Part shown: piece by piece, positions 498 to 23,500 of the stretch
How the letters are laid out: every line of letters begins with the position of its first letter
How positions within the stretch are numbered: position 1 is the first letter of the stretch
Source of the DNA: a virus
Taxonomy: Duplodnaviria; Caudoviricetes
DNA length: 64,000 bases
IMG/VR virus record: IMGVR_UViG_3300027764_000007
Coordinates: 6,515-70,514 of that record
Reading direction: 5' to 3' (one strand)
The notes under the pieces: generated by a model
Database searches by the model: none
Seen by the model: the letters and a program-made list of their open reading frames with translations, nothing else
Told to the model about the DNA's origin: nothing
Program-made: the position numbers and the translations under genes

Positions 498-505
498 ATT
501 TCACC

Positions 506-2470: not shown

Positions 2471-3102
2471 GCTACGAAGGCTCCTACGTTAGCTGGTATT
2501 GCTCTTACCGTGTAGAAGCTCCCTCTCAATGGTGTAATCGTACCAGCACTTGAAGTCACTTGTAGGGACACCTTACTCGCTATCGTGGCATGCGTTGTAA
2601 CATTAGCTCGTATACGGAACTGGTGGTTAACCGCTGTGGTCAATGAAGAGGTAACCGGGATTACTGTTGCAAGGGCTACTGAGTTAGCAACTGCAGCCGT
2701 GATCGGCGCACCCACAGCTTGAACACCAGTAACCGGCCCACCCACGTAGTATGCTGCCATGTTCACAGGAGCCTGCGAATTGGTCAGTGTGAAAGTCACC
2801 GTACCCGCAGTAGTCTTCGTGAAGTGTATTCCATACTCCAGGTCAAAACTACTTGCAGCCGGTAACACGATATTTCCAGCTGAGAAGAAGTTTGCAATGG
2901 TCGGACCAACAGCACTACCGTTAGCTGTCAACGCATAATAGTCTGTGCCGACGTACAGCAAGTTATTCCAGCTAGTTACACCATCCCCGATTTTAACTAA
3001 CCCTGTGCCGCTGACATGCCCAAACTCACCTGGTAACAGGATAGGGTTATTGGTAGCCCAATTTGCAGCTGTATCTTTACGCACTTGAATTTGTGTTGGC
3101 AT
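2467..3102 (-). CDS. Tail protein with Mtd_N-like (major tropism determinant / hyaluronidase-type) N-terminal domain
   Basis: N-terminus MPTQIQVRKDTAANWATNNPILLPGEFG...KIGDGVTSWNNL matches that domain; ATG 3102 overlaps the upstream stop (TAATG). Confidence 0.75.
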   Translation of the reverse strand: MPTQIQVRKDTAANWATNNPILLPGEFGHVSGTGLVKIGDGVTSWNNLLYVGTDYYALTANGSAVGPTIANFFSAGNIVLPAASSFDLEYGIHFTKTTAGTVTFTLTNSQAPVNMAAYYVGGPVTGVQAVGAPITAAVANSVALATVIPVTSSLTTAVNHQFRIRANVTTHATIASKVSLQVTSSAGTITPLRGSFYTVRAIPANVGAFVA

Positions 3103-3500
3103 TATATTGAAGCTCCGCAGTTGATAGTTGAATCCCAATAAACGGTGGAAGAGTTCCCGCCATTAAAATCGATAATGTGCGCAGATCTAGCAAACCCAGC
3201 TGCTTGTTCGGCAGTCAACGACATGAACGCAGTGCTACCCGATACCCAACTAACCCCTGTAGTGTTTTCCAGGCCACGAGCGCACTCATACAGTGTGATA
3301 GTCCCGCCGCTTACCTGGGCACGGCTATAGGTAATAATTTCAAAATTAGCCGGGTTAACCAGTGAATCTGTAAGCATCACCCTGCCACCACTTAACGGTG
3401 GGTTATTGAATGGCGCTGTCGCTACATTCAGAATGATCGTAGAAATGCTGGAGTCGATCGCAGTATTTAATGTGGTTTTTACATTGTTTGTAAAACTCAT
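3102..3500 (-). CDS. Tail-associated structural protein
   Basis: 132 aa; NFEIITYS...CARGLENTTGVSW resembles fibre N-terminal modules; coupled to both neighbours. Confidence 0.55.
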   Translation of the reverse strand: MSFTNNVKTTLNTAIDSSISTIILNVATAPFNNPPLSGGRVMLTDSLVNPANFEIITYSRAQVSGGTITLYECARGLENTTGVSWVSGSTAFMSLTAEQAAGFARSAHIIDFNGGNSSTVYWDSTINCGASI

Positions 3501-3817
3501 TTTTCCCTCACTGATACACAGACATCGACTTCTTTACGCCGGCCTTGGTTAGTCACCACAAGAAATGTGATTTTGTAGTCCATATTAATTGTGCCGCTGC
3601 CAAGCCAGACTTTGAAACGGATTGCCGGGGTACCCAGTATCACCGTATCAGGGTGGCTACCTGGCCCCACTACCAGTAATGGACTTTGTTCTTCGGCGCT
3701 TACCAGCACGAATGTTATAGACGTTATAAAATCATCTGGTGCCCAAGCACCAAACCATTTGCCCATATCAATGTCATAATCCAATATGTCATCTGGCTGC
3801 TTCGAGAACGCAATCAT
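3497..3817 (-). CDS. Fibre-tail adaptor-like protein
   Basis: KQPDDILDYDIDMGKW and C-terminal TNQGRRKEVDV are typical of small fibre adaptor proteins; overlapping start/stop with neighbours. Confidence 0.6.
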   Translation of the reverse strand: MIAFSKQPDDILDYDIDMGKWFGAWAPDDFITSITFVLVSAEEQSPLLVVGPGSHPDTVILGTPAIRFKVWLGSGTINMDYKITFLVVTNQGRRKEVDVCVSVREK

Positions 3818-6510
3818 TACGCCACCTTAAGGTTATAAACTTCTGTGAGGCCGCTCTCACGGGTGCCAACAGCAATACAATATTTATGGACATCGCCAGC
3901 CACTTCGTAACACTGGATACCCGCTAACACACCCACCGAGCGGGTACCCGAATCTATCTCGTAAATCGATATCTTAGGCCTTACTATGTAGGAGTGCCCC
4001 AGGGCAGATAACTCAACAAATCTGGCTTCGTCTTCTACATACCCGACTCTATTTATTGTGGGTACAGCGTAAGTTCTGTCTATTGAAGCAGAAGCTAAAC
4101 CATTAATCTGAGAAATCGCGTGGTTTGCTTGTGCAGTTGCGGTCAGGTGAACTTCACCTAAAAACAGTAAACCAACATGCCCGGTTGCTGTTGCACTCGC
4201 GCTTGCTATTGCACTGACCGCACCCAATTCTATTTTTGATACTGACACGGACATTGAAGCGGTTGCCAAAGCACTGCCGGCACCACGAGTAATTACCCTG
4301 GGCGTAGCAGTAGCATTACAAACAACCAACGCATCTACGGAAGCAGCGTAGATCAGCCCTACGCTGCCCTCAGCACTCGCCTGTGCATTTGCTGCAGAGG
4401 CAGCGCTAACCACCATTTGGGCTGTTGCTTGAGCACTGGCTTCGGCTAGTACTTCTGCGTAGGCTTTTACAACGGTACTGACGAGTGAAAAACCGTAGCC
4501 ATACGCATACGCATAAGCGTCTACAGAAACAGTCGCCCAGACTGTTGCATCAGCGATCCCTGTTGCTGTTGCTTGAGCACCTATTGCTGGGTAATCAATC
4601 CAGTGTGAGCCACCAAGGATAGTCGCGCCAAAAATCAGGTTGCTGCTTGGGTAACTGACGATACCTGTAAAGGCGTTACGAACACCCGCCACAATAACTG
4701 TAGCAGTTGCTGTGGCCTCTACTTCTCCAAGAGTGATTGCGCTATCGCCAACAACCACAACGGCAGTAGCGAGCACACTGCCAGACGCTGAACGCTCTAC
4801 GTACCCAGCACCTGTAGCCGCTGCAGTAACCGTACACGTAACCATTACAGGTTCGGTGTTGAACCCGAAAATTTGCGCTGTGGCTGTAGCCAGTAATGAA
4901 GATGCTGCAGATCTTGTAACCGCGGTATCTACGGCACAGACACTTTGGCTTACTGCAGTACTGCCTGCTGCTTTTACAACAGAGGCCCAAATATCCACTT
5001 CTGCAGACGCATCGGTTGAGACGTACCCGATACTAAATACTGTGCTATTTACTAAGACATTTGCTGTGGCGACTGCGCCAGGTGGTAGGTACTCAAGCCA
5101 CTGAGAGCCACCCAATACGGTCATACCAAAGATCAAATTAGTACTTGGGTAAATCTCTGTGTAACGCTCGTATACGTTTCTCTGACCTTCTACGGAGGCC
5201 ATGGCTGAGCTTTCGGCAATACCTCCTGCGTCAGCAAGACGATGCCCTTCAACCGCAACCGTGGCAGATCCAGTTAAGCTGCTTGCCACTCCAAGCGTGC
5301 TTGAGCTGCTTACAACAACAACCGCACTACCTGTGCAGCTGATATTGCCAAGGCATATCCGCACCGCTTCACACGCCGCAGTTGCCACACTGTTCAATGA
5401 ACTGGCAGCAGATCCTGTAGTATTTACAGCAGCTGTCGCAGTAGCCAAACCAGTTAAGCTACTGTCACCAGCTCGGGTTATAGCCCCAGCACCGGTGGCT
5501 ATTGCAGTAACGGTACAACTTAAGATTACTGGCTCAGTGTTGAAGCCATAGGCGGTACACGTAGCACCAGCCGTTAATACTGAGGCTGCGTGTTCCCGCT
5601 TAGAAGCAAAGCTAGTGACAGTAGCTGTACCAGATAACGTACTGGCCCCTGCTGCTGCTATGTAGGCATAGCCTGTCGCCGCAGCATTACTACTTAGAGT
5701 CGATTCTGCTACCGCAACTGTAAGGCTATCTACCAATACAGTAGCAGTACACGCTTCTCCCAATACCGGGCAATCAAACCACTGGGAACCGCCCAGAATT
5801 ACCCCACCGAATACCAAATTTGTACTTGGGTATTGTGGGAAGTAAATTGGGGTTACACGTTCTACGAGTGCTTGTGCATCTGCGCTAGAGCTTAAGTCAG
5901 ACCCAGCTGCACGAGTAATGGCACCACTGCCTGTAGCAGTAGCTGTCGTTGGTAAAGTGCTTGCTACATTGAGTAGCGAATACGGATTAACTGTAACCGT
6001 GCTTGTCGCATTTAGCGTGCTTGCTGCTGGCTCAATTCCAGAGGCGTATGCACTAGCAGTCGCTAAACCAGAAAGAGTAGAGCTACCTTTGTAATCGGCT
6101 TTAGCATTGCAACTGACACTGGCAGAGGCCGTACAAGTTATATCAGTAACTTGTGCATTATTGCTTGTATAGGCCGTACCCACAGCATTAGCAGATAAGC
6201 TGCTTTGACCAGAAGATAGTTTCCATGCTGCGGCTTCCGCCGCTGCGCTGGAAGATAGTGACGTAGCCCCTTTGGTTACCCGAGAGCCATAACCAGTAGA
6301 AATAGATTCAGCCAGGGCTGTTAAAGCACCTGGCTCAATTTTACTGGCGAATATCGATATTGTTCCTGAAGCTGTGGCAGTACCAGCAGATTGCGTGTGC
6401 TTTATTACGAGTGCGTCAGCTTGGGCCGTAGCAGTAGCTGTGCCCTGAGCTTCGATTTGTAAGCCGGCAAGTAAAAAGTACCCTGCAAACAGCGCACGTC
6501 CTAGTAACAA
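3817..6510 (-). CDS. Long Ala/Thr/Ser-rich repetitive virion (fibre-like) protein
   Basis: 897 aa, TTG start, internal repeats (see findings), inside the tail operon. Confidence 0.65.
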   Translation of the reverse strand: MLLGRALFAGYFLLAGLQIEAQGTATATAQADALVIKHTQSAGTATASGTISIFASKIEPGALTALAESISTGYGSRVTKGATSLSSSAAAEAAAWKLSSGQSSLSANAVGTAYTSNNAQVTDITCTASASVSCNAKADYKGSSTLSGLATASAYASGIEPAASTLNATSTVTVNPYSLLNVASTLPTTATATGSGAITRAAGSDLSSSADAQALVERVTPIYFPQYPSTNLVFGGVILGGSQWFDCPVLGEACTATVLVDSLTVAVAESTLSSNAAATGYAYIAAAGASTLSGTATVTSFASKREHAASVLTAGATCTAYGFNTEPVILSCTVTAIATGAGAITRAGDSSLTGLATATAAVNTTGSAASSLNSVATAACEAVRICLGNISCTGSAVVVVSSSSTLGVASSLTGSATVAVEGHRLADAGGIAESSAMASVEGQRNVYERYTEIYPSTNLIFGMTVLGGSQWLEYLPPGAVATANVLVNSTVFSIGYVSTDASAEVDIWASVVKAAGSTAVSQSVCAVDTAVTRSAASSLLATATAQIFGFNTEPVMVTCTVTAAATGAGYVERSASGSVLATAVVVVGDSAITLGEVEATATATVIVAGVRNAFTGIVSYPSSNLIFGATILGGSHWIDYPAIGAQATATGIADATVWATVSVDAYAYAYGYGFSLVSTVVKAYAEVLAEASAQATAQMVVSAASAANAQASAEGSVGLIYAASVDALVVCNATATPRVITRGAGSALATASMSVSVSKIELGAVSAIASASATATGHVGLLFLGEVHLTATAQANHAISQINGLASASIDRTYAVPTINRVGYVEDEARFVELSALGHSYIVRPKISIYEIDSGTRSVGVLAGIQCYEVAGDVHKYCIAVGTRESGLTEVYNLKVA

Positions 6511-6525
6511 TACCGGACACCTTTA

Positions 6526-6927
6526 TTATGCGAGGGTGATACTGATCGAACTGATTGGGAAGTTCAGTACATCGTTTACATCCAGAGTCTTTGAGTTAGT
6601 CAAAGGCGCGTGGAACAGCAAGTTACCCGCCGATACTGCACTAAACAGTGCCCAATGCGTAACCGTAATCGTTGCACCCGCAACAGCAGGGAATGAAACA
6701 GATTTCGCATTTGTGAACGTACCCGCTGAAGCGTTGAAGCCGTCAGATACAACGGTGGTATGCGCCTGTTGGCGTGCATACCCAACATAGGAACATTCAA
6801 CACCGCCACCGGCATCTGAAGGAGCTGATGTAAACAGTGCCAGATAAACCGCACCGCTTGTGTAAGCACCCCCCTTCAATAAGAGTGTACCCAGTGTTGT
6901 TTCAAGATAATCAGAAAAAGCAGACAT
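6526..6927 (-). CDS. Small tail-associated protein (MSAFSDYLE family)
   Basis: 133 aa; VYLALFTSAPSDAGGGVECSYVGYARQ...ITVTHWALF is a common phage tail-module family; first gene of the tail operon. Confidence 0.7.
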   Translation of the reverse strand: MSAFSDYLETTLGTLLLKGGAYTSGAVYLALFTSAPSDAGGGVECSYVGYARQQAHTTVVSDGFNASAGTFTNAKSVSFPAVAGATITVTHWALFSAVSAGNLLFHAPLTNSKTLDVNDVLNFPISSISITLA

Positions 6928-7097
6928 TTCGAGTCCTCTTTGGGGGGAGTAGGTTAAAAGTTTTCAGAGTCTGCCCGAAGAAATAAAAGTTTTCTGGGAT
7001 ATAAATTTGTCAGCATTATTTGAATTATTAATTTAATTTTCGCTCATGTAAGCCTCTCCAGGAGTTTTGTGAGGTAAAACCAATTTAAAGAGGCACT

Positions 7098-7469
7098 ATG
7101 TTTTTAACCGCTGTGTTATGTATGGCAGAGGCAATCTATTTTGAGAGCCGTGATCAAAGCTCCTTGGGACAAATGGCTGTTGGCTATGTTGTCCAGCATC
7201 GAACAAAAGACACCCGATACTCTGATGATTACTGCGAGGTAGTTCATCAATACATGCAGTTTGAGTATTACTGGGATGGGAAGAAGGAATCGATTAATGA
7301 CCAACAGGCTCACATGCAAGCCATGTCAATAAGCATGCTCACCATCTTGGGAGTGATCCCCGATCCAGTAAATGGCGCTACCCATTTTGACTCGCTAGAT
7401 GAAAGACCCAACTGGGCAGTAACAGCGCCCATTCAGATTGAAGACCATTACTTTTACATAGGACGGTAG
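7098..7469 (+). CDS. Cell wall hydrolase, SleB/Hydrolase_2 family
   Basis: CMAEAIYFESRDQSSLGQMAVGYVVQHR...QFEYY...GATHFD...IEDHYFY motifs; RBS GAGG. Confidence 0.85.
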   Translation: MFLTAVLCMAEAIYFESRDQSSLGQMAVGYVVQHRTKDTRYSDDYCEVVHQYMQFEYYWDGKKESINDQQAHMQAMSISMLTILGVIPDPVNGATHFDSLDERPNWAVTAPIQIEDHYFYIGR

Positions 7470-7470
7470 T

Positions 7471-7788
7471 ATGAAATTCCCCCCGATCAGCCTCACCAAG
7501 GTACTCCAGGTTATCAAGATAGCTCGCACAGCCAAGCAGACTGTCAGCACTATCCAGCGCAGACGGCAGACGAATAAAGCGATTGCCGCCCCTACCCTTG
7601 CGCGGATTTCAGAAGACCTGCACAAGTACATCAGCAACCAAGTTAATGAGCTGCATCTGGCCAGTAAAGATGGCACGGAGGCTGAGATGCAGATGTTGCG
7701 TAAGCGCCTGAACAAACTGAAAACCACTGCAGAGAAGATCAAGGAAGTCCTGCTCGAAGATCACTCCGTTTCTCGGAGAGCACGATGA
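7471..7788 (+). CDS. Hypothetical basic/coiled-coil protein
   Basis: 105-aa ORF immediately after the hydrolase. Confidence 0.6.
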   Translation: MKFPPISLTKVLQVIKIARTAKQTVSTIQRRRQTNKAIAAPTLARISEDLHKYISNQVNELHLASKDGTEAEMQMLRKRLNKLKTTAEKIKEVLLEDHSVSRRAR

Positions 7789-7931
7789 AACCACATGAAG
7801 ACGATGACCTGGATGAATATTTCATTAAGCGGGATATGGCTATGCAGCGTAACGCCGGCCTATGTCTGCGTACTCCCTGGTGTAGCTGTGTTCAATGCTC
7901 GCCAGATGAGGGAGATGCGTTAAAGCACTAA
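7785..7931 (+). CDS. Small hypothetical protein (48 aa, Cys-containing)
   Basis: Manual translation MKPHEDDDLDEYFIKRDMAMQRNAGLCLRTPWCSCVQCSPDEGDALKH; ATGA overlap with the upstream stop. Confidence 0.5.
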   Translation: MKPHEDDDLDEYFIKRDMAMQRNAGLCLRTPWCSCVQCSPDEGDALKH

Positions 7932-8006
7932 TCCCACTAAGTTTAGAGGTATAATTATTCTATTACAATGTATACCCTATCTACCCACAAACATAAGGAA
8001 GCTGCC

Positions 8007-8258
8007 ATGCCGAAAGCCGTGTTTATGCCCGCCAACAGTAAGTTCAGTAAAAATGAGCTGCATGCCAAAGCAATCATCAAAAACCTCCGCTTAGGCAGCA
8101 ATCTTTCAATGATCGCAGGTGCCGATTTGCTCAGCATCACTGTCAAGAATCTCGAGGACATCGAAGCCACAAGAAATTACGGGTGCCATCTCAGCTGGGA
8201 TACTATGCTCATGGTTTCCCGCGCCTACTGCGTGCCGCTGACTCACTTTATAGCGTAA
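8007..8258 (+). CDS. XRE/Cro-C1-type HTH protein
   Basis: IKNLRLGSNLSMIAGADLLSITVKNLEDIE...LSWDTMLMVSRAYCVPLTHF follows the HTH_3 pattern; AAGGA RBS before ATG 8007. Confidence 0.6.
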   Translation: MPKAVFMPANSKFSKNELHAKAIIKNLRLGSNLSMIAGADLLSITVKNLEDIEATRNYGCHLSWDTMLMVSRAYCVPLTHFIA

Positions 8259-8269
8259 CAGGAACTCCC

Positions 8270-8629
8270 ATGGCCGCAGCTCGATTAACTGGCTTCGCGT
8301 CAGTAAGCAAGAAAGAAACAATCCTCAAAAACATCACCCTCTACTTCAGCAACAAAATGCCCCGCATAACTTTCAGCAAAGTCATCCTCAAAGAGGCTGG
8401 TTTGTTGGAAGCATGCAGGATTGATGTGTTGCGGAATAAAAACCGATTGGCTATTACCGCAGGAGATACCTATTCCGTAGATCACTCCTACTCTTCAGGT
8501 AAGTCCATGACTTCAATAAGCGGTGGTTTTTTAAAGGCGGATCAGCCATTCAAATGTTTAGAGTTCAAAATCAAAAAGGGTGTAGTTATCCTCACCCTGC
8601 CCCCAGAGCTTTTCGTAAACCAGGAGTAA
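8270..8629 (+). CDS. Hypothetical protein, possible AbrB-like swapped-hairpin fold
   Basis: PRITFSKVILKEAGLLEACRIDVLRNKNRLAIT resembles the AbrB/SpoVT pattern; start inferred at ATG 8270. Confidence 0.4.
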   Translation: MAAARLTGFASVSKKETILKNITLYFSNKMPRITFSKVILKEAGLLEACRIDVLRNKNRLAITAGDTYSVDHSYSSGKSMTSISGGFLKADQPFKCLEFKIKKGVVILTLPPELFVNQE

Positions 8630-8631
8630 AA

Positions 8632-9072
8632 ATGATTAAGCCAGTATTAAAAGTCATGCGCGTCAGCCGTGATGCAGTAATCCCCAAGTATGAGTCGGAG
8701 CACGCAACTTGCTTTGATATCCGCAGCGTAGAGGCTGCTGCAATTCTACCCGGTGAGCACGTTACTGTTCGCACTGGACTCATCTTTGAGCCACCAGAAG
8801 GCTGGTGCATTGATACCTTCAGTCGTAGTGGTCACGGAGCCAAGCATCGCATCTCCCTCAGCAACAGCGTTGGCAAGATCGACAATGATTACCGCGGAGA
8901 GTTGATGGTGACTCTGAAAAACGATCACCCCACTGATCACTTTGTAGTGGCCGTGGGGGATCGTATTGCTCAAGCAGAGCTACGTCCGTATTACCAGTGT
9001 ACCTTTGAAGAGGTTTATACCGTTTCTTCAACAGCGCGTGGCTCAGGCGGCTTGGGCAGTACCGGCAGATGA
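8632..9072 (+). CDS. dut: Trimeric dUTPase
   Basis: Motifs CFDI, FSRSG, GKIDNDYRGEL, DRIAQ, RGSGGLGSTG; RBS CAGGAG before ATG 8632. Confidence 0.95.
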   Translation: MIKPVLKVMRVSRDAVIPKYESEHATCFDIRSVEAAAILPGEHVTVRTGLIFEPPEGWCIDTFSRSGHGAKHRISLSNSVGKIDNDYRGELMVTLKNDHPTDHFVVAVGDRIAQAELRPYYQCTFEEVYTVSSTARGSGGLGSTGR

Positions 9073-9264
9073 TTTTGTGTCTGGGCCAGCATAATATTTA
9101 GGTGTGACTGGCTCAGGCTCAGGTTCTTTCACCAACGCAGCGATGTTTTCTCCCACAGCACGGAGCATCCCCGCAATTAAATCCGGGCTGAGTGAGTTAC
9201 CTGCATTGCGCTCAAGAATAACCCGAGCCATTTGTAATACCTGCCCTGCCTCTATCTTTAACAT
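9043..9264 (-). CDS. Hypothetical protein
   Basis: 73-aa ORF with GGGGAA RBS, converging on dut. Confidence 0.55.
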   Translation of the reverse strand: MLKIEAGQVLQMARVILERNAGNSLSPDLIAGMLRAVGENIAALVKEPEPEPVTPKYYAGPDTKSSAGTAQAA

Positions 9265-9290
9265 CCGTTCCCCCTTTTCAATTATTTGTT

Positions 9291-9599
9291 TTAACTCAGC
9301 TGCTCACTGAACACATCAACGAAGAGGAATATGTCCTCGCCGCGGAATTCATTCTTGGGTTTCTTGTCAGACCAGGCCGGCTTTTCCGCCATAAACTCCT
9401 TGTACAGGTCACCCTCGATAACAATAGTTCTATACTTTTTGGGTGGCGCTACAGTTTCCGGTAGGGGGAGTTCAGTAACCTCGGGACTCTCATCAAGCAC
9501 AACAACAACACTGTGCCCTATTTTGTGGAGTACAGATTTCAACTTCTGCGTAACTTCTTTAGCCGCTCTGGCTGGCGTAGTTACATTTCTACTGTGCAT
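9291..9599 (-). CDS. Hypothetical protein
   Basis: ATG 9599 overlaps the tail gene stop (TAATG); 102 aa. Confidence 0.55.
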   Translation of the reverse strand: MHSRNVTTPARAAKEVTQKLKSVLHKIGHSVVVVLDESPEVTELPLPETVAPPKKYRTIVIEGDLYKEFMAEKPAWSDKKPKNEFRGEDIFLFVDVFSEQLS

Positions 9600-11671
9600 T
9601 ACCAATTGACTCTCCTCAGATAAAAGTTGGTCCACGGGCCTGTATGGGGGTCTACCGTACTGTATTGAAATTTTGCTACATGGGCGTCAGAACCATCGGT
9701 AGCACCGCTGGACTGATATATGCTGTCGATCCAGTGTGTATGGATTAGTGGGGCCAGATCGGCATAGGTGTACCCATCCAGAAAGTCTGCGTTGAGTAGA
9801 TCCACCTTTATGCTATTGTTTATGGTCATTGGCCCATTGACAGTTAAGGCAGTAGCGCCGCCCGTAGCGACCGCTAGAATGGCGGTACCTCCGGTTGCAG
9901 TTGCTTCGCCCCGTACACCAACGTGGACGCCAGTATTGCCATCCACGCCAGCACTACCATATAAACCAGATGAGCCGTATAGACCTACGCCCCCAACTGC
10001 ACCAGCAATGGCGTGCATTGCGGCCAGAACACCTGCATGGGTCTCACCCCCTGTTGCGATGACTCTGCCGGCTGTTTCGATATCATCCTTGAATGTGGCC
10101 TTGCCTGTCGTAGCGTCCAATACAAACGTGTCAGCTCCAGTGACAGAGCTACGCCCAACAATACCTTTTGAGGTAATCGCTACGCCGTAGCCACCAGCTG
10201 CAACAACACCATCAACATCCCAGTCAATTGTGCCGATCTTCAGCCCGCCCTCACCAGCGAGCACGTTCTGTACTGCCAGCCCCATCTTCGTAGCCAAGCC
10301 AGTGGTGCCATGGATTACAGATGCGTAGGCAGAAGCACCTTCGCTTGCCTCCCCCGCTACGGTAGACAAGGCCGTACCGCCGGCACCAATTCTCAGGCTA
10401 TTGGAGACGTAAGCAGTTCCCGTTACCGCATCCACACCAAACGGAATAATCGGGGCGTACAACTCCCAGCCACCGGTACCCGCTGCAGTGGATCTGAAAT
10501 CCTGCTGGGTACTTGGTTTGTACCAAGTCTCTCCGACAGTAGTTGCAGTAGGTGTACTGTCTTGTATGTAGTCAGAAGCAGCCAATAGAGCGAACTTATC
10601 TGCCTGTACAATGAAGGCAGAGGTGGGTGTCCCATCAAAGTCAGTTGCTGCCAGCCCTATACCAGCGATTGCATTGCCTGCGCTTACCTTTAATGTGTAT
10701 TGAGACTCTAGCCCGGTAGCCTTGCTGGCAGTTACGCGCATTACTTGTTCAAGTTGGGCGTACTGCTCAGTGCCTATCAGTGACCAAGTAGTACCATTGG
10801 AGCGGTATAGCACCTCTTCCAGAGCAGCTGCAGGGTCTACGACACGATAGTATTTACGCTTGTCGGCAGCAGCTGCAGAGACAGCAGAGTTTAGCGCAGC
10901 GTAGGTTGCGTAGGCTGCACCAGGGGATACAGGCAGTAGGTCTTCCGGGTCAACCTCAACCAGTAATCTGGCTTCCATGTTGATGATGTCACTGGCCATT
11001 GCTCCGTCTGCATTTGCACGAACTAGCTGCTCAGCTAGGATAGCCCCGGCATTATCGTTATACATGGCGTAGGCCAGATTCACGGAAGCAACCAAGGCAC
11101 TATCAGCGTTTGTTCTGGCAATTACCTCAGCCCCTAGGAATGTATTCAATCCTGCCATATCATCCGACAGAGAGGCGTAGAGGTCTGCCATCGCATCCTC
11201 CCCTGCAGCCCTGTATGCAGCCTCAGCAGCCAAGCCCCCTTCTACAGAGAATATGGTAGCTATCTTGGCACGCAAGGCAGCGCTGAGCGCACTCTCCAGA
11301 ATCGAATCTGTGAACAGATCCAACATGCTGGCAGCACCGGCCCCCACCAAAGCAGAAGCTGGCCCAATGGGGTCTCCCACAGTGCCTTGCATTGATACCA
11401 GCCGGATCCAGTAGTAATAAGTGGTCGCGGTAACAGGTATCACTGGGTCAAAGAAGTAGTTTCCCCCTATAATCTTATGTTGCGCCGCACCAGCAAAAAC
11501 ATTTGCAGTGCTGCGATAGATTATTGTGTGCGCTACCCCGTACCCCAACACAGCCGGGTATGTCCAACTGAGCGCTACCCCATTCAAGACAGTCTGAGCA
11601 GTGAGCACAACAGAGTTTAAGTCTGGATCGCCCGGTAAAGGGAATGATCCGAAACCAGTACCACAAGTCAT
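9599..11671 (-). CDS. Tail protein with DUF1983 (TipJ C-terminal-like) segment
   Basis: SQYTLKVSAGNAIAGIGLAA...SAFIVQADKFAL; N-terminus MTCGTGFGSFPLPGDPD; C-terminal LNADFLDG fibre motif. Confidence 0.75.
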   Translation of the reverse strand: MTCGTGFGSFPLPGDPDLNSVVLTAQTVLNGVALSWTYPAVLGYGVAHTIIYRSTANVFAGAAQHKIIGGNYFFDPVIPVTATTYYYWIRLVSMQGTVGDPIGPASALVGAGAASMLDLFTDSILESALSAALRAKIATIFSVEGGLAAEAAYRAAGEDAMADLYASLSDDMAGLNTFLGAEVIARTNADSALVASVNLAYAMYNDNAGAILAEQLVRANADGAMASDIINMEARLLVEVDPEDLLPVSPGAAYATYAALNSAVSAAAADKRKYYRVVDPAAALEEVLYRSNGTTWSLIGTEQYAQLEQVMRVTASKATGLESQYTLKVSAGNAIAGIGLAATDFDGTPTSAFIVQADKFALLAASDYIQDSTPTATTVGETWYKPSTQQDFRSTAAGTGGWELYAPIIPFGVDAVTGTAYVSNSLRIGAGGTALSTVAGEASEGASAYASVIHGTTGLATKMGLAVQNVLAGEGGLKIGTIDWDVDGVVAAGGYGVAITSKGIVGRSSVTGADTFVLDATTGKATFKDDIETAGRVIATGGETHAGVLAAMHAIAGAVGGVGLYGSSGLYGSAGVDGNTGVHVGVRGEATATGGTAILAVATGGATALTVNGPMTINNSIKVDLLNADFLDGYTYADLAPLIHTHWIDSIYQSSGATDGSDAHVAKFQYSTVDPHTGPWTNFYLRRVNW

Positions 11672-11849
11672 ATGCCGCCCAACCAATTAAAAAAGTTGAG
11701 CTGTTATACAAAACCCCCAAAACTTTTTCTGGGGATATTTCCCAGACATCAATAAGGGATCAGGAATGGAGACCGACGCGCAGCGGCGGAGGGTCCATGA
11801 CGCCAATTCCTTATTGGTGGCGGCAGGAAGATGATCTGCCGGTAATAAT

Positions 11850-11927
11850 CCATAACCTAAACACTCCCGCCTCCTTGCTCGCTCGTCGCTGCGCTCCTCC
11901 TCGCGGGGCTGCGTGTTTAGGTTATGG
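11850..11927. repeat. Long hairpin element, copy 1 (15-bp perfect inverted repeat, TCGCTGCGCTC core)
   Basis: CCATAACCTAAACAC (11850-11864) / GTGTTTAGGTTATGG (11913-11927); core at 11886-11896. Confidence 0.9.
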
Positions 11928-11942
11928 TCACTGGTTTTGAGG

Positions 11943-11961
11943 GGTAACTCCGTTACCTTGG
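11943..11961 (+). promoter_or_regulatory. Putative N4-type vRNAP hairpin promoter
   Basis: GGTAAC-TCC-GTTACC (template loop GGA closed by C:G, as in N4 P2); with loop centre 11950 as -11, +1 falls on G 11961. Confidence 0.55.
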
Positions 11962-12116: not shown

Positions 12117-12485
12117 TTGTCGGATTTTACAGAACACTTAGGTAAAGCACGCGCAGACAGGATTCGTTATCACCAAGCCGGGGGCAAGCAGCACAAAGCC
12201 CCTGGCGTCAATATCCCCAACACGGTGATACAGAGAATCCAAAATATTAGCTCTGCGTTTGATGGGCCAATAGAGAACATCCTACACACGGCCTGTATTC
12301 GTGAGGCAAACCGTATTCCCCTCAATACCGGCAGACTTCTTAACGTCCTGCAGTGTATTACGCTGATCAACACCAGAGAAGTACAAACCATGATGAACTT
12401 GGACAAAAGGCAAGCAAGCGAGTATGTCCGTGCCGCCAAATTTGCTATCCCTTTCATCGAGAAGGCTTTCCCAGATGACTCATGA
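12117..12485 (+). CDS. Hypothetical protein with possible C-terminal HTH
   Basis: 122 aa; INTREVQTMMNLDKRQASEYVRAA is HTH-like; start codon uncertain. Confidence 0.5.
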   Translation: MSDFTEHLGKARADRIRYHQAGGKQHKAPGVNIPNTVIQRIQNISSAFDGPIENILHTACIREANRIPLNTGRLLNVLQCITLINTREVQTMMNLDKRQASEYVRAAKFAIPFIEKAFPDDS

Positions 12486-12690
12486 CATTTATACCCAAGG
12501 GGATCTCTTTGATATATCCCATTGCAAGCGGCAGTCAACTCTCAAGAGCTGGCTTCATATCAACGGAATACCCTTCATTCACGATGCCAAAGGACGGGTT
12601 ATTGCCCACAAGACAGCAGTAGAACAAGGCTTTGGGGTAAAGTCCCAGCAACTTCCAGTAACCCCCGCCATCGTGTTATCGTTTGATTAA
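12475..12690 (+). CDS. DUF4224-family small protein, putative excisionase/RDF
   Basis: YTQGDLFDISHCKRQSTLKSWLHINGIPFIHDAKGRVIAH matches the DUF4224 pattern; directly upstream of the integrase. Confidence 0.75.
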   Translation: MTHDIYTQGDLFDISHCKRQSTLKSWLHINGIPFIHDAKGRVIAHKTAVEQGFGVKSQQLPVTPAIVLSFD

Positions 12691-12714
12691 CCCCATTGAA
12701 CCAGGATACCCAAG

Positions 12715-13740
12715 GTGCCAAAACCACGCTTGAAGCAGAACCGTTCCCTGCCAAAGCGCTGGGCACTTAAAAACGGGGCGTATTATTACCTAGTCCCACC
12801 ACCAGAAAAGCCCGACTGGGATAATAAATCTTGGTTCAGGCTGGGCAGCACGCTGTCCGAAGCCCATGAGACCTACTCCAAACGAATCCACAAGAGCATA
12901 GCCACTGTGGTGACCATGCAGGATCTGTTTGATAGGTTTGAGTTCGAGTACCTCTCTACGCTCGCTGTGGCAACGAAACGCTACTATCTTTACGCCTTAC
13001 CAAGGCTACGTAAGATATTCACCACCACGCGCATTCCAGTAGCTGCAGTAGAGCCGTTTCACGCTTACCAGATGTCTGATCACCTGGCTAAGAACGAATC
13101 CAAGAAGATAGCCAAACAGTGTGCTGAGTGTCTCTCTTCTGCCCTGAGCTATGCAGTACGCATTGGAGCCATCAAAGCCAACCCTCTTATTGGGCAGTTC
13201 AAGAAGCCCACCACAGAGGGCAGGAACAACGATGTCACCGATGAGCACCTCATAGCCTTCGTACAGACGCTACCACGCAAATGGCAGCTCTACGTGATGC
13301 TGAAGCTGCATGCCAAAGGACGACGCAAGGGAGAGCTTCTACGCCTTATGCGCAGTGATCTGTTACCCGAAGGGATTAAGTTCACCAACAACAAGCGTAC
13401 CGATGATGTCTTTATCGTGGCTTGGACTGATCAGTTAAGGGCGATCGTACAGGAGCTGCTGGATGATGCTCCCCCAAGAATAGGAGATGCACCCCTGTTC
13501 TTTGGGAAACAGTACAAGGCCTACATCAATGAGTCAGGCAGTACCTCTGGCTTCGACTCTATCTGGCAACGCTACATGACCAAAGCAGTTACAGCGAAGC
13601 TGTGCAACCACTTCACTGAACATGATCTACGCCGCAAAGCAGTAGAGAATGAGACCCTTTCAGGGGCTGCACACCTGCTCCGCCACACGTCTTCAGCGGT
13701 GACGGCCAAGCATTACCGCCCCAAACCAGAGAGAATATGA
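12715..13740 (+). CDS. int: Tyrosine recombinase / phage integrase
   Basis: Catalytic set present: GRRKGE (R), NNK (K), EHDLRRK (HxxR), LLRHTS (H), TAKHY (Y); arm-binding-type N-terminus; next to a tRNA-derived att site. Confidence 0.93.
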   Translation: MPKPRLKQNRSLPKRWALKNGAYYYLVPPPEKPDWDNKSWFRLGSTLSEAHETYSKRIHKSIATVVTMQDLFDRFEFEYLSTLAVATKRYYLYALPRLRKIFTTTRIPVAAVEPFHAYQMSDHLAKNESKKIAKQCAECLSSALSYAVRIGAIKANPLIGQFKKPTTEGRNNDVTDEHLIAFVQTLPRKWQLYVMLKLHAKGRRKGELLRLMRSDLLPEGIKFTNNKRTDDVFIVAWTDQLRAIVQELLDDAPPRIGDAPLFFGKQYKAYINESGSTSGFDSIWQRYMTKAVTAKLCNHFTEHDLRRKAVENETLSGAAHLLRHTSSAVTAKHYRPKPERI

Positions 13741-13791
13741 CCGTTTTTACCGGGCATCTATTAGACAAGCTGGAATCAAATAGACAGAAAC

Positions 13792-13816
13792 AAAAAAGGC
13801 ACCGATCAGGTGCCTT
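13792..13816 (-). terminator. Rho-independent terminator downstream of the tRNA 3' end
   Basis: Minus strand AAGGCACC-TGATC-GGTGCCTT followed by T-tract. Confidence 0.75.
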
Positions 13817-13842
13817 CTAAGTGCTTGATTTACAAGCTTATA

Positions 13843-13892
13843 TGGTGGGCCGTGTGCGACTTGAACGCACGACCAATTGGTTAAAAGCCAAT
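13843..13892 (-). tRNA. Partial tRNA-Lys(TTT), 3' portion only (attP core)
   Basis: Minus strand ATTGG-CTTTTAA-CCAAT anticodon arm, TGGTC, GTGCG-TTCAAGT-CGCAC T arm, ACGGCCC-A-CCA; no 5' acceptor strand or D arm upstream. Confidence 0.9.
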
Positions 13893-14078
13893 AGCCCTCC
13901 ACGCATTAAACCTTTATAAATCATTTAGTTACACTCTCCGTGTGTCTAATAGAATTTTGCCGCCACTGCCTGTAAGTCATTGATTTCCTTGCCCCACATT
14001 ATGATCTATTAGACAGAAAAATCAAATTTTTTCTGCGTAGACTCCTGCCCAAATTACTCACCCCAAAAGGAGAAACCA

Positions 14079-14573
14079 GTGTCACCAAAACCCCACTTAC
14101 TTATCTTGGGCCACACCCAACATGGCAAAGACACCCTGGCAGAGTTGCTCCACACATTGTACGGGCTGTCTTTCATATCATCGAGTCTTGCAGCCTATGA
14201 AATTGCTGTAAAGCCGGCCCTGCAGAACATCGTGCGGTATGCCAACTCTGCTGCCGCACTGGCTGACAGATTCAGCTACCGCCCAGAGTGGAAAGCTGCC
14301 ATCTCAGCGTACAACACCCCAGATAAATCCAGATTGGCCAGAGAGATACTGGAAACCAATCAGATCTACGTTGGCATGCGCTGCAAAGATGAGTATGCCG
14401 CAGCCAAGAAACTGTTTGACCTTGTGCTATGGGTACATCGCCCAGGGCAACCGGCTAATGCCAAAGACCTCACCATCGAATTCAACCCAGCTGAGATGCA
14501 CAGCGTCATCAATGTTGGGGAGCCAACCCAGATGGCTTACCAGGTCAAAAGGCTAATCAACAAAGCCACATAA
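14079..14573 (+). CDS. P-loop protein, deoxynucleoside monophosphate kinase-like
   Basis: LILGHTQHGKDT Walker A variant; IYVGMR; GGAG RBS with GTG start. Confidence 0.6.
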   Translation: MSPKPHLLILGHTQHGKDTLAELLHTLYGLSFISSSLAAYEIAVKPALQNIVRYANSAAALADRFSYRPEWKAAISAYNTPDKSRLAREILETNQIYVGMRCKDEYAAAKKLFDLVLWVHRPGQPANAKDLTIEFNPAEMHSVINVGEPTQMAYQVKRLINKAT

Positions 14574-15624: not shown

Positions 15625-17772
15625 ATGAAACCGCTTGATGAAGTCCCTTTCCACCCACTTACAGAAAAGTTGGTGAGTATCCTGTGTACACGAACACAAA
15701 ATACGAACCCCATGTTTTTCCGTGTGCATGTTGCGTATTACTGGGCACTCGTGGCCTCCATGATGCGCTGCAGTTTGCTCACCAAAGACCGCGGGAAACT
15801 CCCAGTAAATCTGTATGCCATTAACCTTTCTACCTCTGGCTCAGGCAAAGGTTACTCAACCAATGTCATGGAAGAACAGGTATTGGTCCAATTTATTGAG
15901 CGCTTCACTGAAGAAACTTTTCCGCTCATGGCAGAAAGGAATCTCCCTATGCTGGCCAATAATCGTGCGATACGCAAAAGCACCGATCCAGATGATGAGT
16001 TGGAGCGTTGCCGCAGAGAGTTTGACTCCCAAGGGCCACTGGTTATCAGCTTCGATTCTGGCACCACTGCTGCAGTCCGGCAGGCACGCCATAAGTTGCT
16101 AATGGCCAATGGTGGCTCCATGAATCTGCAGATTGATGAGATAGGTTCCAACCTCATGGGTAACGTGGAAGTGCTCAACACTTTCCTGGAACTCTATGAC
16201 GTTGGCCGCATCAAAACCAAGCTCATTAAAAATACTGCGGAGAACACCCGACACGAAGAAATCTCCGGCAGAACTCCCACCAATCTGATGCTATTCGGTA
16301 CGCCGAGTAGATTGCTCAATGGGGGCAAAGCAGAGGACGAATTCTACTCCATGCTGGATACAGGCTACGCAAGACGTTGCCTATTCAGCTACAGTAGAAA
16401 TCACACGCGTGCTACCAATAAAACTCCCCAAGAAGTATTGGCTGAACGCATTGACACCACTACGCAAGGCTTCCTCCAACACCTGGCAGATCACTTTGGC
16501 GCTCTCGCAGATATGTCCAACGTGAACAAAGATCTGCCAGTTCAGGATGATGTCACGTTGTTGTTCATTGAGTACCAGCTTGAATGCGAAAAGAAAGCAG
16601 ATCATCTTCCTGATCACGATGAAATGCGTAAAGCAGAACTATCTCACCGACACTTCAAAGCACTCAAGCTGGCCGGTGCCTACGCCTTTGTAGATAACGC
16701 AGCTGAAGTGACTATGGAGCATGCGTACCAAGCCATAAAGCTTGCAGAGGAATCCGGTAAAGCATTTGACATGCTGCTTACCCGAGACCGTCCATATGTG
16801 AAGCTGGCGAAGTATATCGCTGACATTGGAAGAGGGGTGACCCAAGCTGATCTGGTTGAGGACTTACCGTTCTACCGAGGCTCGTTAAGCCAGAAGCAAG
16901 AAATGATGCAGTTGGCCATTGCCTATGGTTATCAGAACAACATCCTGATCAAGAAAATGTTCAGCGATGGTGTTGAGTTCCTGCATGGAGAATCCCTAAA
17001 GCTGCTTGATCTGACCAAGATCATCATCAGCTACAGCGATGATATCGCTACAGGGTACGCCCCAGAGCACGCTCCCTTTGACAAGCTGCACATGCTGACT
17101 CAACTGGAAGATATGCACTGGGTAAACCATCACCTCAAAGGCGGTCATCGTAGCGAAGAGGATGCTATTGCCGGCTTCAACATTATCGTCATTGACGTTG
17201 ATGGGGAGATCAGCATGGAACAGGCACAACTCTACTTGCAAGATTACTCCTGCATGTTCTACACCACCAAGCGGCACACAGAAACAGAGAACCGTTTCCG
17301 TATCATCATGCCAATTGCGTATGAGCTGAAGCTGGATGCCAAGGACTACAAAGAGTTCATGTCCAATATCTTTGCTTGGCTTCCATTTGAAGTTGACGCT
17401 GCCACCAACCAACGTGCTCGTAAGTGGCTGACTCACCCTGGCTACTACAAGTATCAGGACGGTGACATTCTCGACCCACTCCCGTTTATTCCTAAGACTG
17501 CCAAGAATGAGGAGCGCAAACGCACTCTTCAGGATCAGCAAGCATTGGATGCACTGGAGCGTTGGGTACTCAACAACTCTGGTGATGGTAACCGCAACAA
17601 CATGCTTCTCAAGTATGCCATGTTGCTTGTGGACAGTGGTTTCACCTTCAATGATGTTCACGACAAAGTAATGTCGCTGAACGACAAGATGCCCGACAAA
17701 TTGGATCAAGCAGAAATTCTGGGAACCATCCTGAAAACTGCAGCCAAGGCTATTGCTGGGCGCGAAGATTAA
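15625..17772 (+). CDS. DNA primase (N4 gp43/Dns-like)
   Basis: 715 aa; SGSGKG P-loop, VIDVDG primase-polymerase motif, C-terminal GNRNNML; N4 synteny. Confidence 0.88.
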   Translation: MKPLDEVPFHPLTEKLVSILCTRTQNTNPMFFRVHVAYYWALVASMMRCSLLTKDRGKLPVNLYAINLSTSGSGKGYSTNVMEEQVLVQFIERFTEETFPLMAERNLPMLANNRAIRKSTDPDDELERCRREFDSQGPLVISFDSGTTAAVRQARHKLLMANGGSMNLQIDEIGSNLMGNVEVLNTFLELYDVGRIKTKLIKNTAENTRHEEISGRTPTNLMLFGTPSRLLNGGKAEDEFYSMLDTGYARRCLFSYSRNHTRATNKTPQEVLAERIDTTTQGFLQHLADHFGALADMSNVNKDLPVQDDVTLLFIEYQLECEKKADHLPDHDEMRKAELSHRHFKALKLAGAYAFVDNAAEVTMEHAYQAIKLAEESGKAFDMLLTRDRPYVKLAKYIADIGRGVTQADLVEDLPFYRGSLSQKQEMMQLAIAYGYQNNILIKKMFSDGVEFLHGESLKLLDLTKIIISYSDDIATGYAPEHAPFDKLHMLTQLEDMHWVNHHLKGGHRSEEDAIAGFNIIVIDVDGEISMEQAQLYLQDYSCMFYTTKRHTETENRFRIIMPIAYELKLDAKDYKEFMSNIFAWLPFEVDAATNQRARKWLTHPGYYKYQDGDILDPLPFIPKTAKNEERKRTLQDQQALDALERWVLNNSGDGNRNNMLLKYAMLLVDSGFTFNDVHDKVMSLNDKMPDKLDQAEILGTILKTAAKAIAGRED

Positions 17773-20537: not shown

Positions 20538-23500
20538 CTACAACACTGTATCCAGCGCCTTCACTGTCAGTCCTTCCTGTATCGCATCAACATAGTTAAA
20601 TGGGCCTGCTCCTGCAGGGTTACGCAGTAGCCATTCCCATATAACTGGATCGGTGATGCTAGGTACTATTGACGTGACGTTATTCAATGCCGCCAACGCC
20701 AATACTCTACCTGGCTTATCATGGTAGATAGCGAACAACACACTCTGCATTCTCAGATAATACTTAGTGAATGGGATTATCCCCATATCATTGATGTACT
20801 GTACCTTCTGATCAGTAGGTATGTCGTAGTTCACAAAGGATTTATCTGCCAACTCTACCGCTGCAGCATGATCAAGCTTGTCTACAGTTCTTGTTGTAGC
20901 ATGCTTGTACAAGGTGTAGCGGGCCATAAAGTCTCCCGCATGTGTACCACGACTCAACAGCTGATAAAGTGTTGTGTCGTGAGTCATGTACACACCTTCC
21001 CCAATTGCTCTTACCTTATCAGGTAACCTCGCTACCACCTTCTCAGTAAACCGCCCAAGCTTATTCTTGTATGCATCAAGGTCTTCAGAGGTATCAATAT
21101 CTTCAGCAATGGTGTGATACAACCCAGCCTCTACCAATGGCCTTACTGGATTGCGCTTGAGTGAGTCTTCAAGCTCTACAATCCGTGCCTCTATTGCCGC
21201 AGTATCCCCCTGTACATACTTAATACGCAGTATGTTCTTCAGTTTATCAAGCTCTGCCTCATCCATCTGATAGGTGAATATCCCTATGAATGCAGTGATG
21301 TGGTCTCGGATGATGTCTTTAACCGGTACACCCATCGCAGCTAACTGCACCATGTTGAACTTGTTGTTCCCCAGCATGGTAGACAGACTCTTCACTACAA
21401 AGAAGTCCTTAACCTCTCCCATAATTGTTTGCCAACCCTGTTCAACGAACTTGGCACGCATCCCCGTCTTGTCTCCCCAAAGAATGAATGAAGCGATACC
21501 CATTGCTATCTTCTCTGGCGCTGTGCGCAGCGTTTCATCTTTATCAAATACAGCACTTGCCTTGTATTTTCGATAACCAATCATCATGTTGTACGCATCA
21601 GCATTAATCATCATCCGATCGACACCCCAAATTTTATTGATGTGCCTCTTGGCATCCGAAGGCAGTAAGCGGTACGCATTTGCTACTTCAGGGTCTGCGC
21701 TATCTTCACTGAATTCAACGAACGCCTCCGGGTCTTTTGCGAACTCTTGTTTATATTTTGAATGCAGCGTCTCAATAATCAGTTCATTCTGTGGTGCTGA
21801 ATTTATCTTATCGAAGGTGTGCCCAGACATTCTGCCCAACACACGATCAACACGGTTATCTCGCCCCAGCAGATCATCTTTCATGGTTGCGCTCATCAGG
21901 TAACGGTACGCAGTGATAGTCCCAGTAGGACTGAACACAGGCACCATCACAGGCTTTTTACTACGCACTCGGGCAAACCCCTGGCGAGGACTATCCAGCT
22001 CAGCAATATCCTTGCGTTGTGCTCTAGCGATCGCCTGGTTTTTACGCACGTTACCCATGTAGGCGAACTCACCTGTGGCAGAGGTGATGCCGCCATGTGT
22101 GGAGGTACCACGACTGACTTGCCCTGTGATGGATAGCGCTCCACTGACCCTTGGTGCTCCACCACCATCTCTGCGGGTGTAGATGAAGTAATCATCTGGG
22201 CGAGCGTCTGCATCATCTTTTTCAAGCTTGCCTACTTTTATCCATCCGGCCATGAGGAGTTTTTCTCCCCCCTTAAGAGTAGCCACTTCCACTTCAATAT
22301 GGGGGTTGAATATCTCCTTGGTATAGCCCTTCATGTAATGCACCATGCCCTCAGCAAACAGGTTCTCTTTGGCATCGTTCTGCAGGTCAGCATGCAACTT
22401 CAGCACTAGCTCTATGCCGTTATGCTTATCTGCCCTGGCCAGCTCACGGGTAAGCACAGCATGGGCGGGCTTCTTGATGCTGTCTGGCAGGTAATACAGG
22501 GCGTACAGTGAAGCCAATTTATCAATAACCGGGATGTTATCCGCAGCGATCTGTGCGTCCACTTTGCCATATCTTGCTGTACCCAAACGGTGGGCAATGT
22601 TGTATGCGTTGAACTGCAGGTTGGGTGTGCCAGCAATATCCTCTGACAGGAAATCCCCCAAGTCTTGGGCACGATTCTGGTAGTAAACCTTATCCGGCCC
22701 AGTCAACTTTGCAGCTAAGGCGGTGATCGCTTTTTCCAGAGACTTCGGAGATTTCAGGAACTCGGCCAGCTGCTCCATTGAGTATTCTTTTATCAAGCTG
22801 GCTATGTCCGTGCGAACGAATGCCCGAGTAACTGCACTGGATTCAATCTCAGACAAGGGTTCGGCAAATCCCCCACCTACTTGCCCAGAAACAGTCTGAT
22901 CAATTTTTGCTCTGGCTTGCTCAATCTGCTTGGATGCTCGCAGCAGTTTCAGCAGAGAAATGTCTTTATCGGCAACGCCCTGCAGTTCACCCAATAAAGC
23001 TGCAGTAGTGCCATCTCGCTCTTGGAAGTTCTGCTTGTTACGCAGCTTACGAATACCATCCAATATGGTGCCGACAGTTCCCGAGGCAACAGCAGATGTC
23101 AGTTTACCCGCAACACGCACCAGAGCAACGCTGTTGTTCTTGATTGAAGGGGCATTGGCGGTATCGACAATAGCTTTACGCACGCTCTCCCCTGCACGCT
23201 CCAGAGCTTTCTCATAGGCGGCAGGGACAGTGTTCTGCTCCACAATCAACTGAGCTTTACGCTTGGCTTCCAGCTTTGCCAATCTCTCTGCCAGAGCCTT
23301 CAGACGCTGGGCAGAATTCTGTTTATGGCTGGTCAAGGTTCCAACGTAAGCCAGAGATTGCAGCAGCAGTTTCACCAGGATGTCCAGCCTGTCCATCAAG
23401 CTCTTGCCCTTGAACATATCCAAGCCCACTTTGGGACGGATTGTAGCGAGCTTGGCATACATGGGTGGGTAAGCCAGTCCAATAGCGGTGAAGCGGCTCA

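Follow-up and report, generated by a model that had tools for sequence, protein, structure and literature searches.

Cultured N4-like phages (Schitoviridae) are regarded as strictly lytic, which is part of the reason why they are favoured in phage-therapy work, and lysogeny in this family is, to our knowledge, known from sequence mining only. The locus described here is an integration cassette composed of a DUF4224 gene, a tyrosine integrase gene (int) and an inferred phage attachment site (attP), which together span positions 12475-14026 of a 64-kb stretch of phage DNA. This stretch, referred to below as the window, corresponds to bases 6515-70514 of the 70,514-bp IMG/VR record IMGVR_UViG_3300027764_000007, and all coordinates are given on it unless another locus is named. 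The cassette likely constitutes a functional lambda-style site-specific integration module in a free N4-like genome, whose phage would be able to integrate and is probably temperate. Taken separately, the integration module is very probably functional, and stable lysogeny of this lineage is plausible.

The closest described systems include N4-like genomes recovered by sequence mining, the lambda Int/Xis/IHF/attP system, bacterial elements inserted at tRNA-Lys genes and the T7-like pelagiphages of the HTVC019P type. As the preliminary description of the window had stated, integrated N4-like genomes have a precedent in genome mining: a survey of IMG/VR and bacterial genomes collected 54 N4-like genomes or proviruses with an integrase, a transposase or a diversity-generating retroelement (DGR) (Zheng et al. 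2023, mSystems 8:e00197-23, PMC10654107). In the parts of that article drawn on here, some N4-like viruses are concluded to be lysogenic, with integrated copies mainly in Moraxella, marine genomes form the largest group, and lysogeny genes cluster in particular subfamilies. The window phage resembles these genomes in joining an N4-like backbone with a lysogeny hallmark gene and in its origin from IMG/VR, marine genomes being included in that set. The difference lies in the level of description, as the same parts of the article list genes and describe neither an attP with its arm sites nor a target tRNA or a directionality factor, the sole mention of tRNA being in host prediction. Integrase-bearing N4-like phages are thus already published from sequence mining, and what is added here is the anatomy of an attP and evidence that modules have been exchanged at one fixed slot.

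With the lambda system the window shares a three-domain heterobivalent integrase and an attP of about 270 bp with arm repeats on both sides and sites that fit the consensus of integration host factor (IHF). It departs from lambda in several respects: the two integrases are only 17-20% identical, the window core lies in a tRNA gene whereas lambda attB is intergenic, the helper gene codes for a DUF4224 protein, not assigned by Pfam to the lambda Xis family, and the window sites are predicted from sequence. Nearer in sequence are the tRNA-Lys elements of Haliea salexigens DSM 19537, Alcanivorax sp. DSM 26293 and the gammaproteobacterial metagenome-assembled genome (MAG) NORP290, whose integrases are of the same family (41-64% identity) and likewise follow a DUF4224 gene; int and a complete tRNA-Lys(UUU) converge in them, and the partial copy at the far end begins at tRNA position 28-30. 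Unlike the window phage, which is seen free, these elements measure 3-45 kb, have no N4-like genes within reach and are seen integrated. Finally, the HTVC019P-type pelagiphages are the nearest experimentally supported parallel, since they insert into tRNA genes and yet grow lytically, with no lysogens isolated (bioRxiv 10.1101/410191). Like the window phage they are podoviruses with an RNA polymerase (RNAP) of their own, classically considered lytic, and they carry an integrase with an adjoining attP, the core of which is located in a tRNA gene of the host. In contrast, they belong to another family, their single-subunit T7 RNAP is not injected, their targets are tRNA-Cys, -Leu and -Arg, and their integration has been shown by PCR and metagenome junction reads, whereas for the window phage it is inferred.

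The window belongs to a complete, free N4-like genome without host flanks. The family hallmark, a virion RNA polymerase (vRNAP) of 3607 aa already reported in the preliminary description, is encoded on the minus strand at 20538-31361 and matches phrog_2206 over residues 173-3596 (E=0). Matches at E values of 1e-93 or better (phrog_2166/2051, phrog_1357, phrog_1216 and phrog_2135) were obtained for RNAPII, capsid, portal and replication genes, including the two RNAPII subunits at 52443-54718, the gp59-type portal at 40509-42704 and the N4 gp56-type capsid at 37580-38980. The portal is 51-53% identical to those of N4-like isolates that infect Pseudomonas, Salmonella, Klebsiella and other hosts, and the capsid homologues bear the name 'N4-gp56 family' in their sources. 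The large terminase subunit gene TerL (44074-45678) and an N4-type replication set, with DNA polymerase (61193-63823), primase (15625-17772) and an exonuclease gene, complete the picture. CheckV estimates completeness at 95%. The record is metagenomic and is labelled 'linear' by IMG/VR; its first 30 nt recur at 70245 and its last 30 nt at position 160, so that the first ~190 nt (positions 1-189, L101) repeat the record end. An 81-bp tandem duplication, 96% identical, occupies window positions 63805-63966, directly after the DNA polymerase gene and at the closing junction. Because its ends overlap, the 'linear' record is really a closed assembly, broken at the 81-bp repeat. No host DNA was found anywhere in the record and phage genes stand on both sides of the attachment core, which bears out the earlier statement that the unintegrated form was sequenced.

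Within the cassette, the integrase is encoded on the plus strand at 12715-13740 and consists of 341 aa. The preliminary description had called it a complete tyrosine integrase of the R-K-HxxR-H-Y type, and the whole catalytic set is indeed present (R204, K227, H303-x-x-R306, H324 and Y334), and its conservation is seen in two alignments, of 24 and of 60 sequences; in the larger one K227, R306, H324 and Y334 are invariant, R204 is kept in at least 90% of the sequences and H303 is variable, being replaced by N in some homologues. A family profile aligns residues 2-228 to residues 1-239 of lambda Int (E=3e-16), and the AlphaFold model (pLDDT 91.9) finds its best Foldseek matches in full-length lambda Int (1z1b, 1z1g and 5j0n). 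In this model, strands at residues 16-19, 22-26 and 40-44 and a helix precede the core-binding (CB) domain. Judging from profile and model, the protein is a lambda-type (heterobivalent) integrase predicted to share the complete three-domain layout of lambda Int, with an arm-binding domain at the N-terminus.

Upstream of int, the DUF4224 gene that had been announced is present on the plus strand (12475-12690, 71 aa; PF13986 25.2 bits, cut-off 22) and also matches the 'excisionase' family phrog_1266 (E 1.5e-7). Its boundaries needed correction, as the open reading frame (ORF) at 12117-12485 is a separate gene and the ATG at 12475, not 12424, is most likely the start. This separate plus-strand ORF, of 122 aa, stands at the head of the operon and belongs to phrog_3360, a family of unknown function (E=7.8e-15). 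Homologues of it lie just 5' of the exonuclease gene in L080 and L081, which are both without an integrase at this locus, and it is therefore a backbone gene outside the mobile cassette. Its stop overlaps the start of the DUF4224 gene, which in turn ends 24 nt 5' of the int start. Among the small ORFs immediately 5' of integrase homologues in other elements, 8 of 10 are DUF4224 genes, and the family occurs again at the same place in L121 (53.5 bits). These associations suggest the DUF4224 protein as a candidate recombination directionality factor (Xis-like) for excision; a literature search on DUF4224 found no functional study. Beyond attP, the first gene is a plus-strand kinase-like ORF of 164 aa (14079-14573) with weak PHROG matches, including one to dNMP kinase (3.6e-6); it has no Pfam match and is absent from the relatives. 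NCBIfam gave no match for the integrase, the DUF4224 protein, the phrog_3360 ORF or the kinase-like ORF.

The inferred attP extends over ~270 bp (13756-14026) downstream of int. Its core is formed by the 3' 49 nt of a tRNA-Lys(UUU) gene on the minus strand (13843-13891), as delimited by alignment to 13 bacterial tRNA-Lys genes, in agreement with the earlier proposal of a core derived from the 3' part of tRNA-Lys(TTT). The core runs from the 5' strand of the anticodon stem to the CCA end, with the anticodon loop at 13881-13887. ARAGORN finds no complete tRNA in the window, and Infernal reports a partial tRNA at 13854-13912 on the minus strand with 28.2 bits (gathering score 29). The identity to host tRNA-Lys genes is uninterrupted over 22 nt, from tRNA position 28 to 49, that is, from window position 13891 down to 13870, and the acceptor 3' strand and CCA are identical as well. 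The T-arm differs (GTGCG-TTCAAGT-CGCAC in the phage versus GCTGG-TTCGAAT-CCAGC in the host); three of the five T-stem pairs deviate from Halieaceae tRNA-Lys, all of them compensated, and the phage T-loop is canonical in form. When the 5' part of the Haliea tRNA is joined in silico to the phage 3' part, ARAGORN calls an intact 76-nt tRNA-Lys(ttt), whereas the phage part alone gives none, which upholds the claim that integration would restore the host tRNA.

The core lies between repeated candidate sites for the integrase. An 11-mer, TCTATTAGACA, detected by a repeat search, occurs on the int side as an exact copy (13757-13767, plus strand) and a degenerate one (13776-13786, plus strand), and on the far side as an exact inverted copy (13943-13953, minus strand) and an exact distal direct copy (14005-14015, plus strand). 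No further copy with up to one mismatch exists outside attP in the whole 64 kb. Two sites predicted by consensus for IHF, WATCAANNNNTTR on the int side (13818-13830, minus strand) and another on the far side (13973-13985, minus strand), share their orientation, lie 155 nt apart and account for two of the four perfect IHF-consensus sites of the window. From these features the attP can be read as a complex site, a tRNA-Lys core set between repeated candidate arm-type sites and predicted IHF sites. An intrinsic terminator consisting of a hairpin and a T-run (dG -8.7 kcal/mol, z=-5.4), with which a terminator scan agrees, follows the CCA end on the same strand as the tRNA fragment and faces the int end as well; the hairpin reported at 13792-13816 is thus real, its coordinates being 13794-13818 on the minus strand.

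The integrase homologues of bacteria, taken from a collection of species-representative genomes, have the same target. Every homologue with 41-64% identity has a complete tRNA-Lys(UUU) at a distance of ~100-400 nt (L018: ~1.9 kb), and the two genes converge, a geometry also found in the window. Their hosts are Haliea, Halioglobus, other Halieaceae, Porticoccaceae, Alcanivorax and MAG NORP290, while more distant homologues adjoin tRNA-Arg, -Val or -Ser. Five genomes contain the core exactly twice, once in the complete tRNA-Lys and once in a partial copy located 3-45 kb away on the element side, and this copy starts at tRNA position 28-30, the same boundary as that of the window core. Complete and partial copies together represent the attL/attR signature of five elements, none of them N4-like. 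The prophage search suggested in the preliminary description thus yielded elements with a homologous integrase and no N4-like member of the lineage.

On this anatomy, integration may proceed as follows. The genome would circularise, and Int and host IHF would assemble on attP, the core of which would pair with tRNA-Lys in the chromosome of the most likely host, a marine gammaproteobacterium. Strand exchange would take place in or near the anticodon stem-loop (13870-13891). The phage would then contribute the terminator and the 3' part of the tRNA gene, namely the 3' strands of the anticodon and acceptor stems, a T-arm of phage type and the CCA, so that an intact tRNA-Lys is rebuilt beside int, and the displaced host 3' part would stay beside the end formed by the kinase-like, exonuclease and primase genes. 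The geometry foreseen earlier, with the phage terminator behind the tRNA and the genome opened between int and the kinase-like gene, holds, and would leave the kinase-like ORF at the opposite end of the prophage from int. The DUF4224 protein, predicted to be translationally coupled upstream of int, may act as the directionality factor for excision.

The locus recurs in phages that have diverged considerably from the one described here. A metagenome scan with the integrase alignment brought up L050 (17.4 kb), L062 and L063, three N4-like contigs that originate from other metagenomes and share the gene order tail fibre (minus strand), DUF4224, int, attP, exonuclease and primase, followed in L050 by vRNAP on the minus strand. 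Identity to the window is 60-63% for the integrase, 59% for the primase and 49-54% for the exonuclease. A complete tRNA is absent from all three contigs, whose cores are identical to the tRNA-Lys of the Halieaceae loci over the whole stretch between anticodon stem and CCA, both included. The spacings of repeats and sites (19, 229-230 and 155 nt) are the same in the window and in L050, and the paired IHF sites are kept in L050 and L063 at a distance of 153-155 nt, while at equal spacing the arm repeat reads TGTGAGACA in L050 versus the 11-mer of the window. Preservation of the layout with turnover of the repeat sequence is what would be expected of sites that coevolve with the arm-binding domain of Int.

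These contigs also bear on the idea that the region at 12-14 kb was joined artificially during assembly, or entered the phage as an integrative element in its own right, for which the metagenomic origin and 'linear' label of the record might speak. Identical junctions occur on both sides in the three contigs, and the integrase cluster of the window phage includes an independent 70,466-bp ENA contig, Logan contigs and three JGI contigs with the same integrase. The cassette thus being present in three syntenic contigs and an independent assembly, a chimera, one of the three refuting conditions named in the preliminary description, is excluded, and the other two do not apply either, the integrase being intact and near-identical bacterial tRNA-Lys genes being present; the overlapping record ends agree with this, and the single att copy differs from the attL/attR pair expected of an inserted element, so that this explanation as a whole is very improbable. 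A variant in which an integrative element entered a phage-borne tRNA gene was rejected, there being one att copy and no complete tRNA.

Additional relatives place the module within a wider pattern. Searching IMG/VR with the primase yielded 34 relatives of 51-66% identity, none with an integrase of the window type near the primase; a scan of IMG/VR with the single integrase protein gave no match, and an alignment-based scan returned only relatives of at most 45% identity, none of them N4-like. Among long contigs, the nearest integrase homologues lie on JGI contigs of 54.6 kb (66%) and 75.6 kb and on ENA contigs of 131 kb and 1.15 Mb (58-61%), and a capsid homologue of 76% is recorded on a contig equal in length to the first. 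A tree of the primases unites the window with L050 and L095 (support 97/94), and L050 has its nearest primase relative in L095. The latter fills the slot between tail and exonuclease genes with a different tyrosine integrase of 344 aa (L095:2472-4021; PF00589 57.8 bits), preceded by an 85-aa ORF, and Rfam detects no tRNA-like fragment next to this integrase. When the whole records of 20 relatives, 13 of them near-complete, were scanned with PF00589, four of the 13 had integrases (G808, G817, G811 and G812). A DUF4224 and Int pair, 33% identical to that of the window, is present in G808 and G817. In G808 (70,377 bp; L121:480-2786), whose primase is 66% identical to that of the window, the pair adjoins a 3' fragment of tRNA-Arg(ACG), and the IHF-type 14-mer of the window's far-side site, TAAGTCATTGATTT, recurs beside this tRNA-Arg attP; the cassette lies ~22 kb upstream of the primase and not beside the exonuclease gene. 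Longer tyrosine integrases occur in G811 and G812, that of G811 being of the P4 type (Arm-DNA-bind_3, Phage_int_M and PF00589). G811 (73,086 bp; L126:5855-7087), from a sister lineage, is classed as a 'provirus' by IMG/VR; its record ends exactly at the start codon of the 410-aa integrase, the host flank lying outside.

At least three kinds of integration module are therefore scattered through this N4-like group, and at least one relative is recorded as integrated. A broader reading, tentatively held and somewhat short of an even chance, is that the marine N4-like group has long been temperate and that the tail/exonuclease slot of one clade takes interchangeable modules, namely the tRNA-Lys DUF4224 and Int pair in the window, L050, L062 and L063, and an unrelated integrase in L095, with neighbours carrying a tRNA-Arg cassette or a P4-type integrase elsewhere and one of them recorded as a provirus. 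If this is true, some means would be needed to silence the vRNAP-started cascade in the lysogen and to restart it without injected polymerase.

As a separate observation, the DUF4224-type integrase of G817 (L124:895-2948) has a complete tRNA-Arg(ACG) less than 1 kb downstream, which could be a full phage-borne tRNA in attP or an attL-type junction.

Several results weigh against a functional module in a temperate phage, some of them concerning the cassette itself. As a single sequence, the integrase scores 20 bits against PF00589, under the cut-off of 27.1; this reflects a divergent subfamily rather than exclusion from the tyrosine recombinases, and is outweighed by the profile and structure matches. 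The integrated elements with the closest bacterial integrase homologues (L009, 64%; L010, 59%) are not N4-like, nine of the 13 near-complete relatives are without any tyrosine recombinase, and the integrase is found in none of 485 N4-like records of a phage collection. Such a distribution would suit a recent, unused and decaying acquisition from a conventional temperate phage by a phage that is itself virulent. This alternative is nevertheless unlikely, as the same locus is present in contigs whose core genes are 49-59% identical and whose integrases have diverged alike (60-63%), without stops and with the catalytic residues kept; attP is undamaged in its four arm repeats, its two IHF sites and the tRNA-like folding of its core; and the GC content of the cassette equals that of the genome (0.48 in the integrase region, the window being even at 0.44-0.52).

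The remaining adverse results concern the host and the integrated state. Comparison of the core with bacterial tRNA-Lys genes, proposed earlier as a means of naming the host, found near-identical genes and no exact match to its 32-nt 3' part in 97 genomes of the GTDB order that holds MAG NORP290, the source of the closest bacterial integrase (64%), or in 401 sampled gammaproteobacteria. The nearest candidates are 22 of the 97 genomes, which have two mismatches over 32 nt, share the unusual TTCAAGT T-loop and differ from the phage by one compensated base pair only, and four of the 401, which have the T-stem of the phage and one loop difference (one mismatch over 32 nt). Searching with the portal revealed no N4-like prophage in the five genomes that encode integrase homologues, in 306 Halieaceae genomes or in the 97 of the NORP290 order, where the sole match (23% identity, E=6e-7) is not N4-like. 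The contigs that carry the 120 closest capsid homologues all measure 93 kb or less. Nothing resembling a CI repressor was recognised, and a Pfam scan of 64 small ORFs gave no match to a LexA-type peptidase or a CI family. Of the earlier claim that the phage is temperate, the intact anatomy of the integration module therefore stands, and an integrated N4-like copy in the genomes searched and a repressor are missing.

Early transcription of N4 depends on a polymerase delivered with the capsid, and a prophage of this type must consequently start its lytic programme otherwise. The module might work in a phage that is lytic in practice, integrating occasionally and forming no stable repressed lysogens, like the T7-like pelagiphages. 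This explanation, somewhat unlikely and yet deserving serious attention, draws on early transcription from an injected vRNAP with no obvious off-switch, on the failure to recognise a repressor or immunity region, on the lack of an integrated copy of the lineage in ~400 candidate-host genomes and on the pelagiphage precedent (bioRxiv 10.1101/410191). It is opposed by the sister-lineage relative classed as a provirus with an integrase at its boundary, by the integrated N4-like proviruses reported by Zheng et al. 2023 (PMC10654107), and by the candidate directionality factor, whose conservation beside int implies that excision from a stably integrated state has been under selection. A temperate phage with a working module remains the preferred interpretation.

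The value of the locus lies in an attachment site that is unusually readable, with core, arm repeats, IHF sites, terminator and helper gene, and that is backed by conservation in divergent relatives. Because the attP can be read in this way, the integration step is testable with synthetic DNA and the uncultured host is not needed. The practical weight is limited, there being no isolate, the host not being named and the general claim being already published.

Genes of regulatory type were seen at two places. Among the 64 small ORFs, the sole clear DNA-binding protein is a 74-aa winged helix of the MarR/LexA type (MarR_2, 3.5e-7; L101:2807-3031), encoded upstream of the window among small genes 3' of the DNA polymerase. 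In L050 (L050:3086-3343) and L062 (L062:552-809), an 85-aa gene with an XRE/Cro-type helix-turn-helix (HTH_26, 7.9e-6) separates int from the attP core. This gene, a candidate regulator of lysogeny, has no counterpart at that place in the window.

Other features of the genome lie outside the cassette. The tail block (1-11686, minus strand) stands apart from the other structural genes, between the DNA polymerase block and the exonuclease/primase block; it includes homologues of the podophage GP4 fibre proteins gp77 and gp80, and is interrupted by a plus-strand island (7098-9072) with a cell-wall hydrolase and a dUTPase. A link to DGRs like that of the published subfamily SF8 was considered, as a tail protein has an Mtd_N domain, but was rejected because no reverse-transcriptase family is among the Pfam matches listed. 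Within the structural block, a gene on the opposite strand (42804-43304) encodes a protein similar to Tad2 (Thoeris anti-defence 2; PF11195, 1.7e-25) with an extra ~80 aa at its N-terminus. Finally, two related long hairpins, with outer stems of 15-17 bp and z-scores of -4.3 and -6.2, are found at 11850-11927, 5' of the integrase operon, and at 47533-47607, 5' of the early region. Their common tip motif, TCGCTGCGCTC, is not conserved in related N4-like loci, and the first of them is followed at 11943-11957 by a smaller hairpin with a 6-bp stem and a 3-nt loop.

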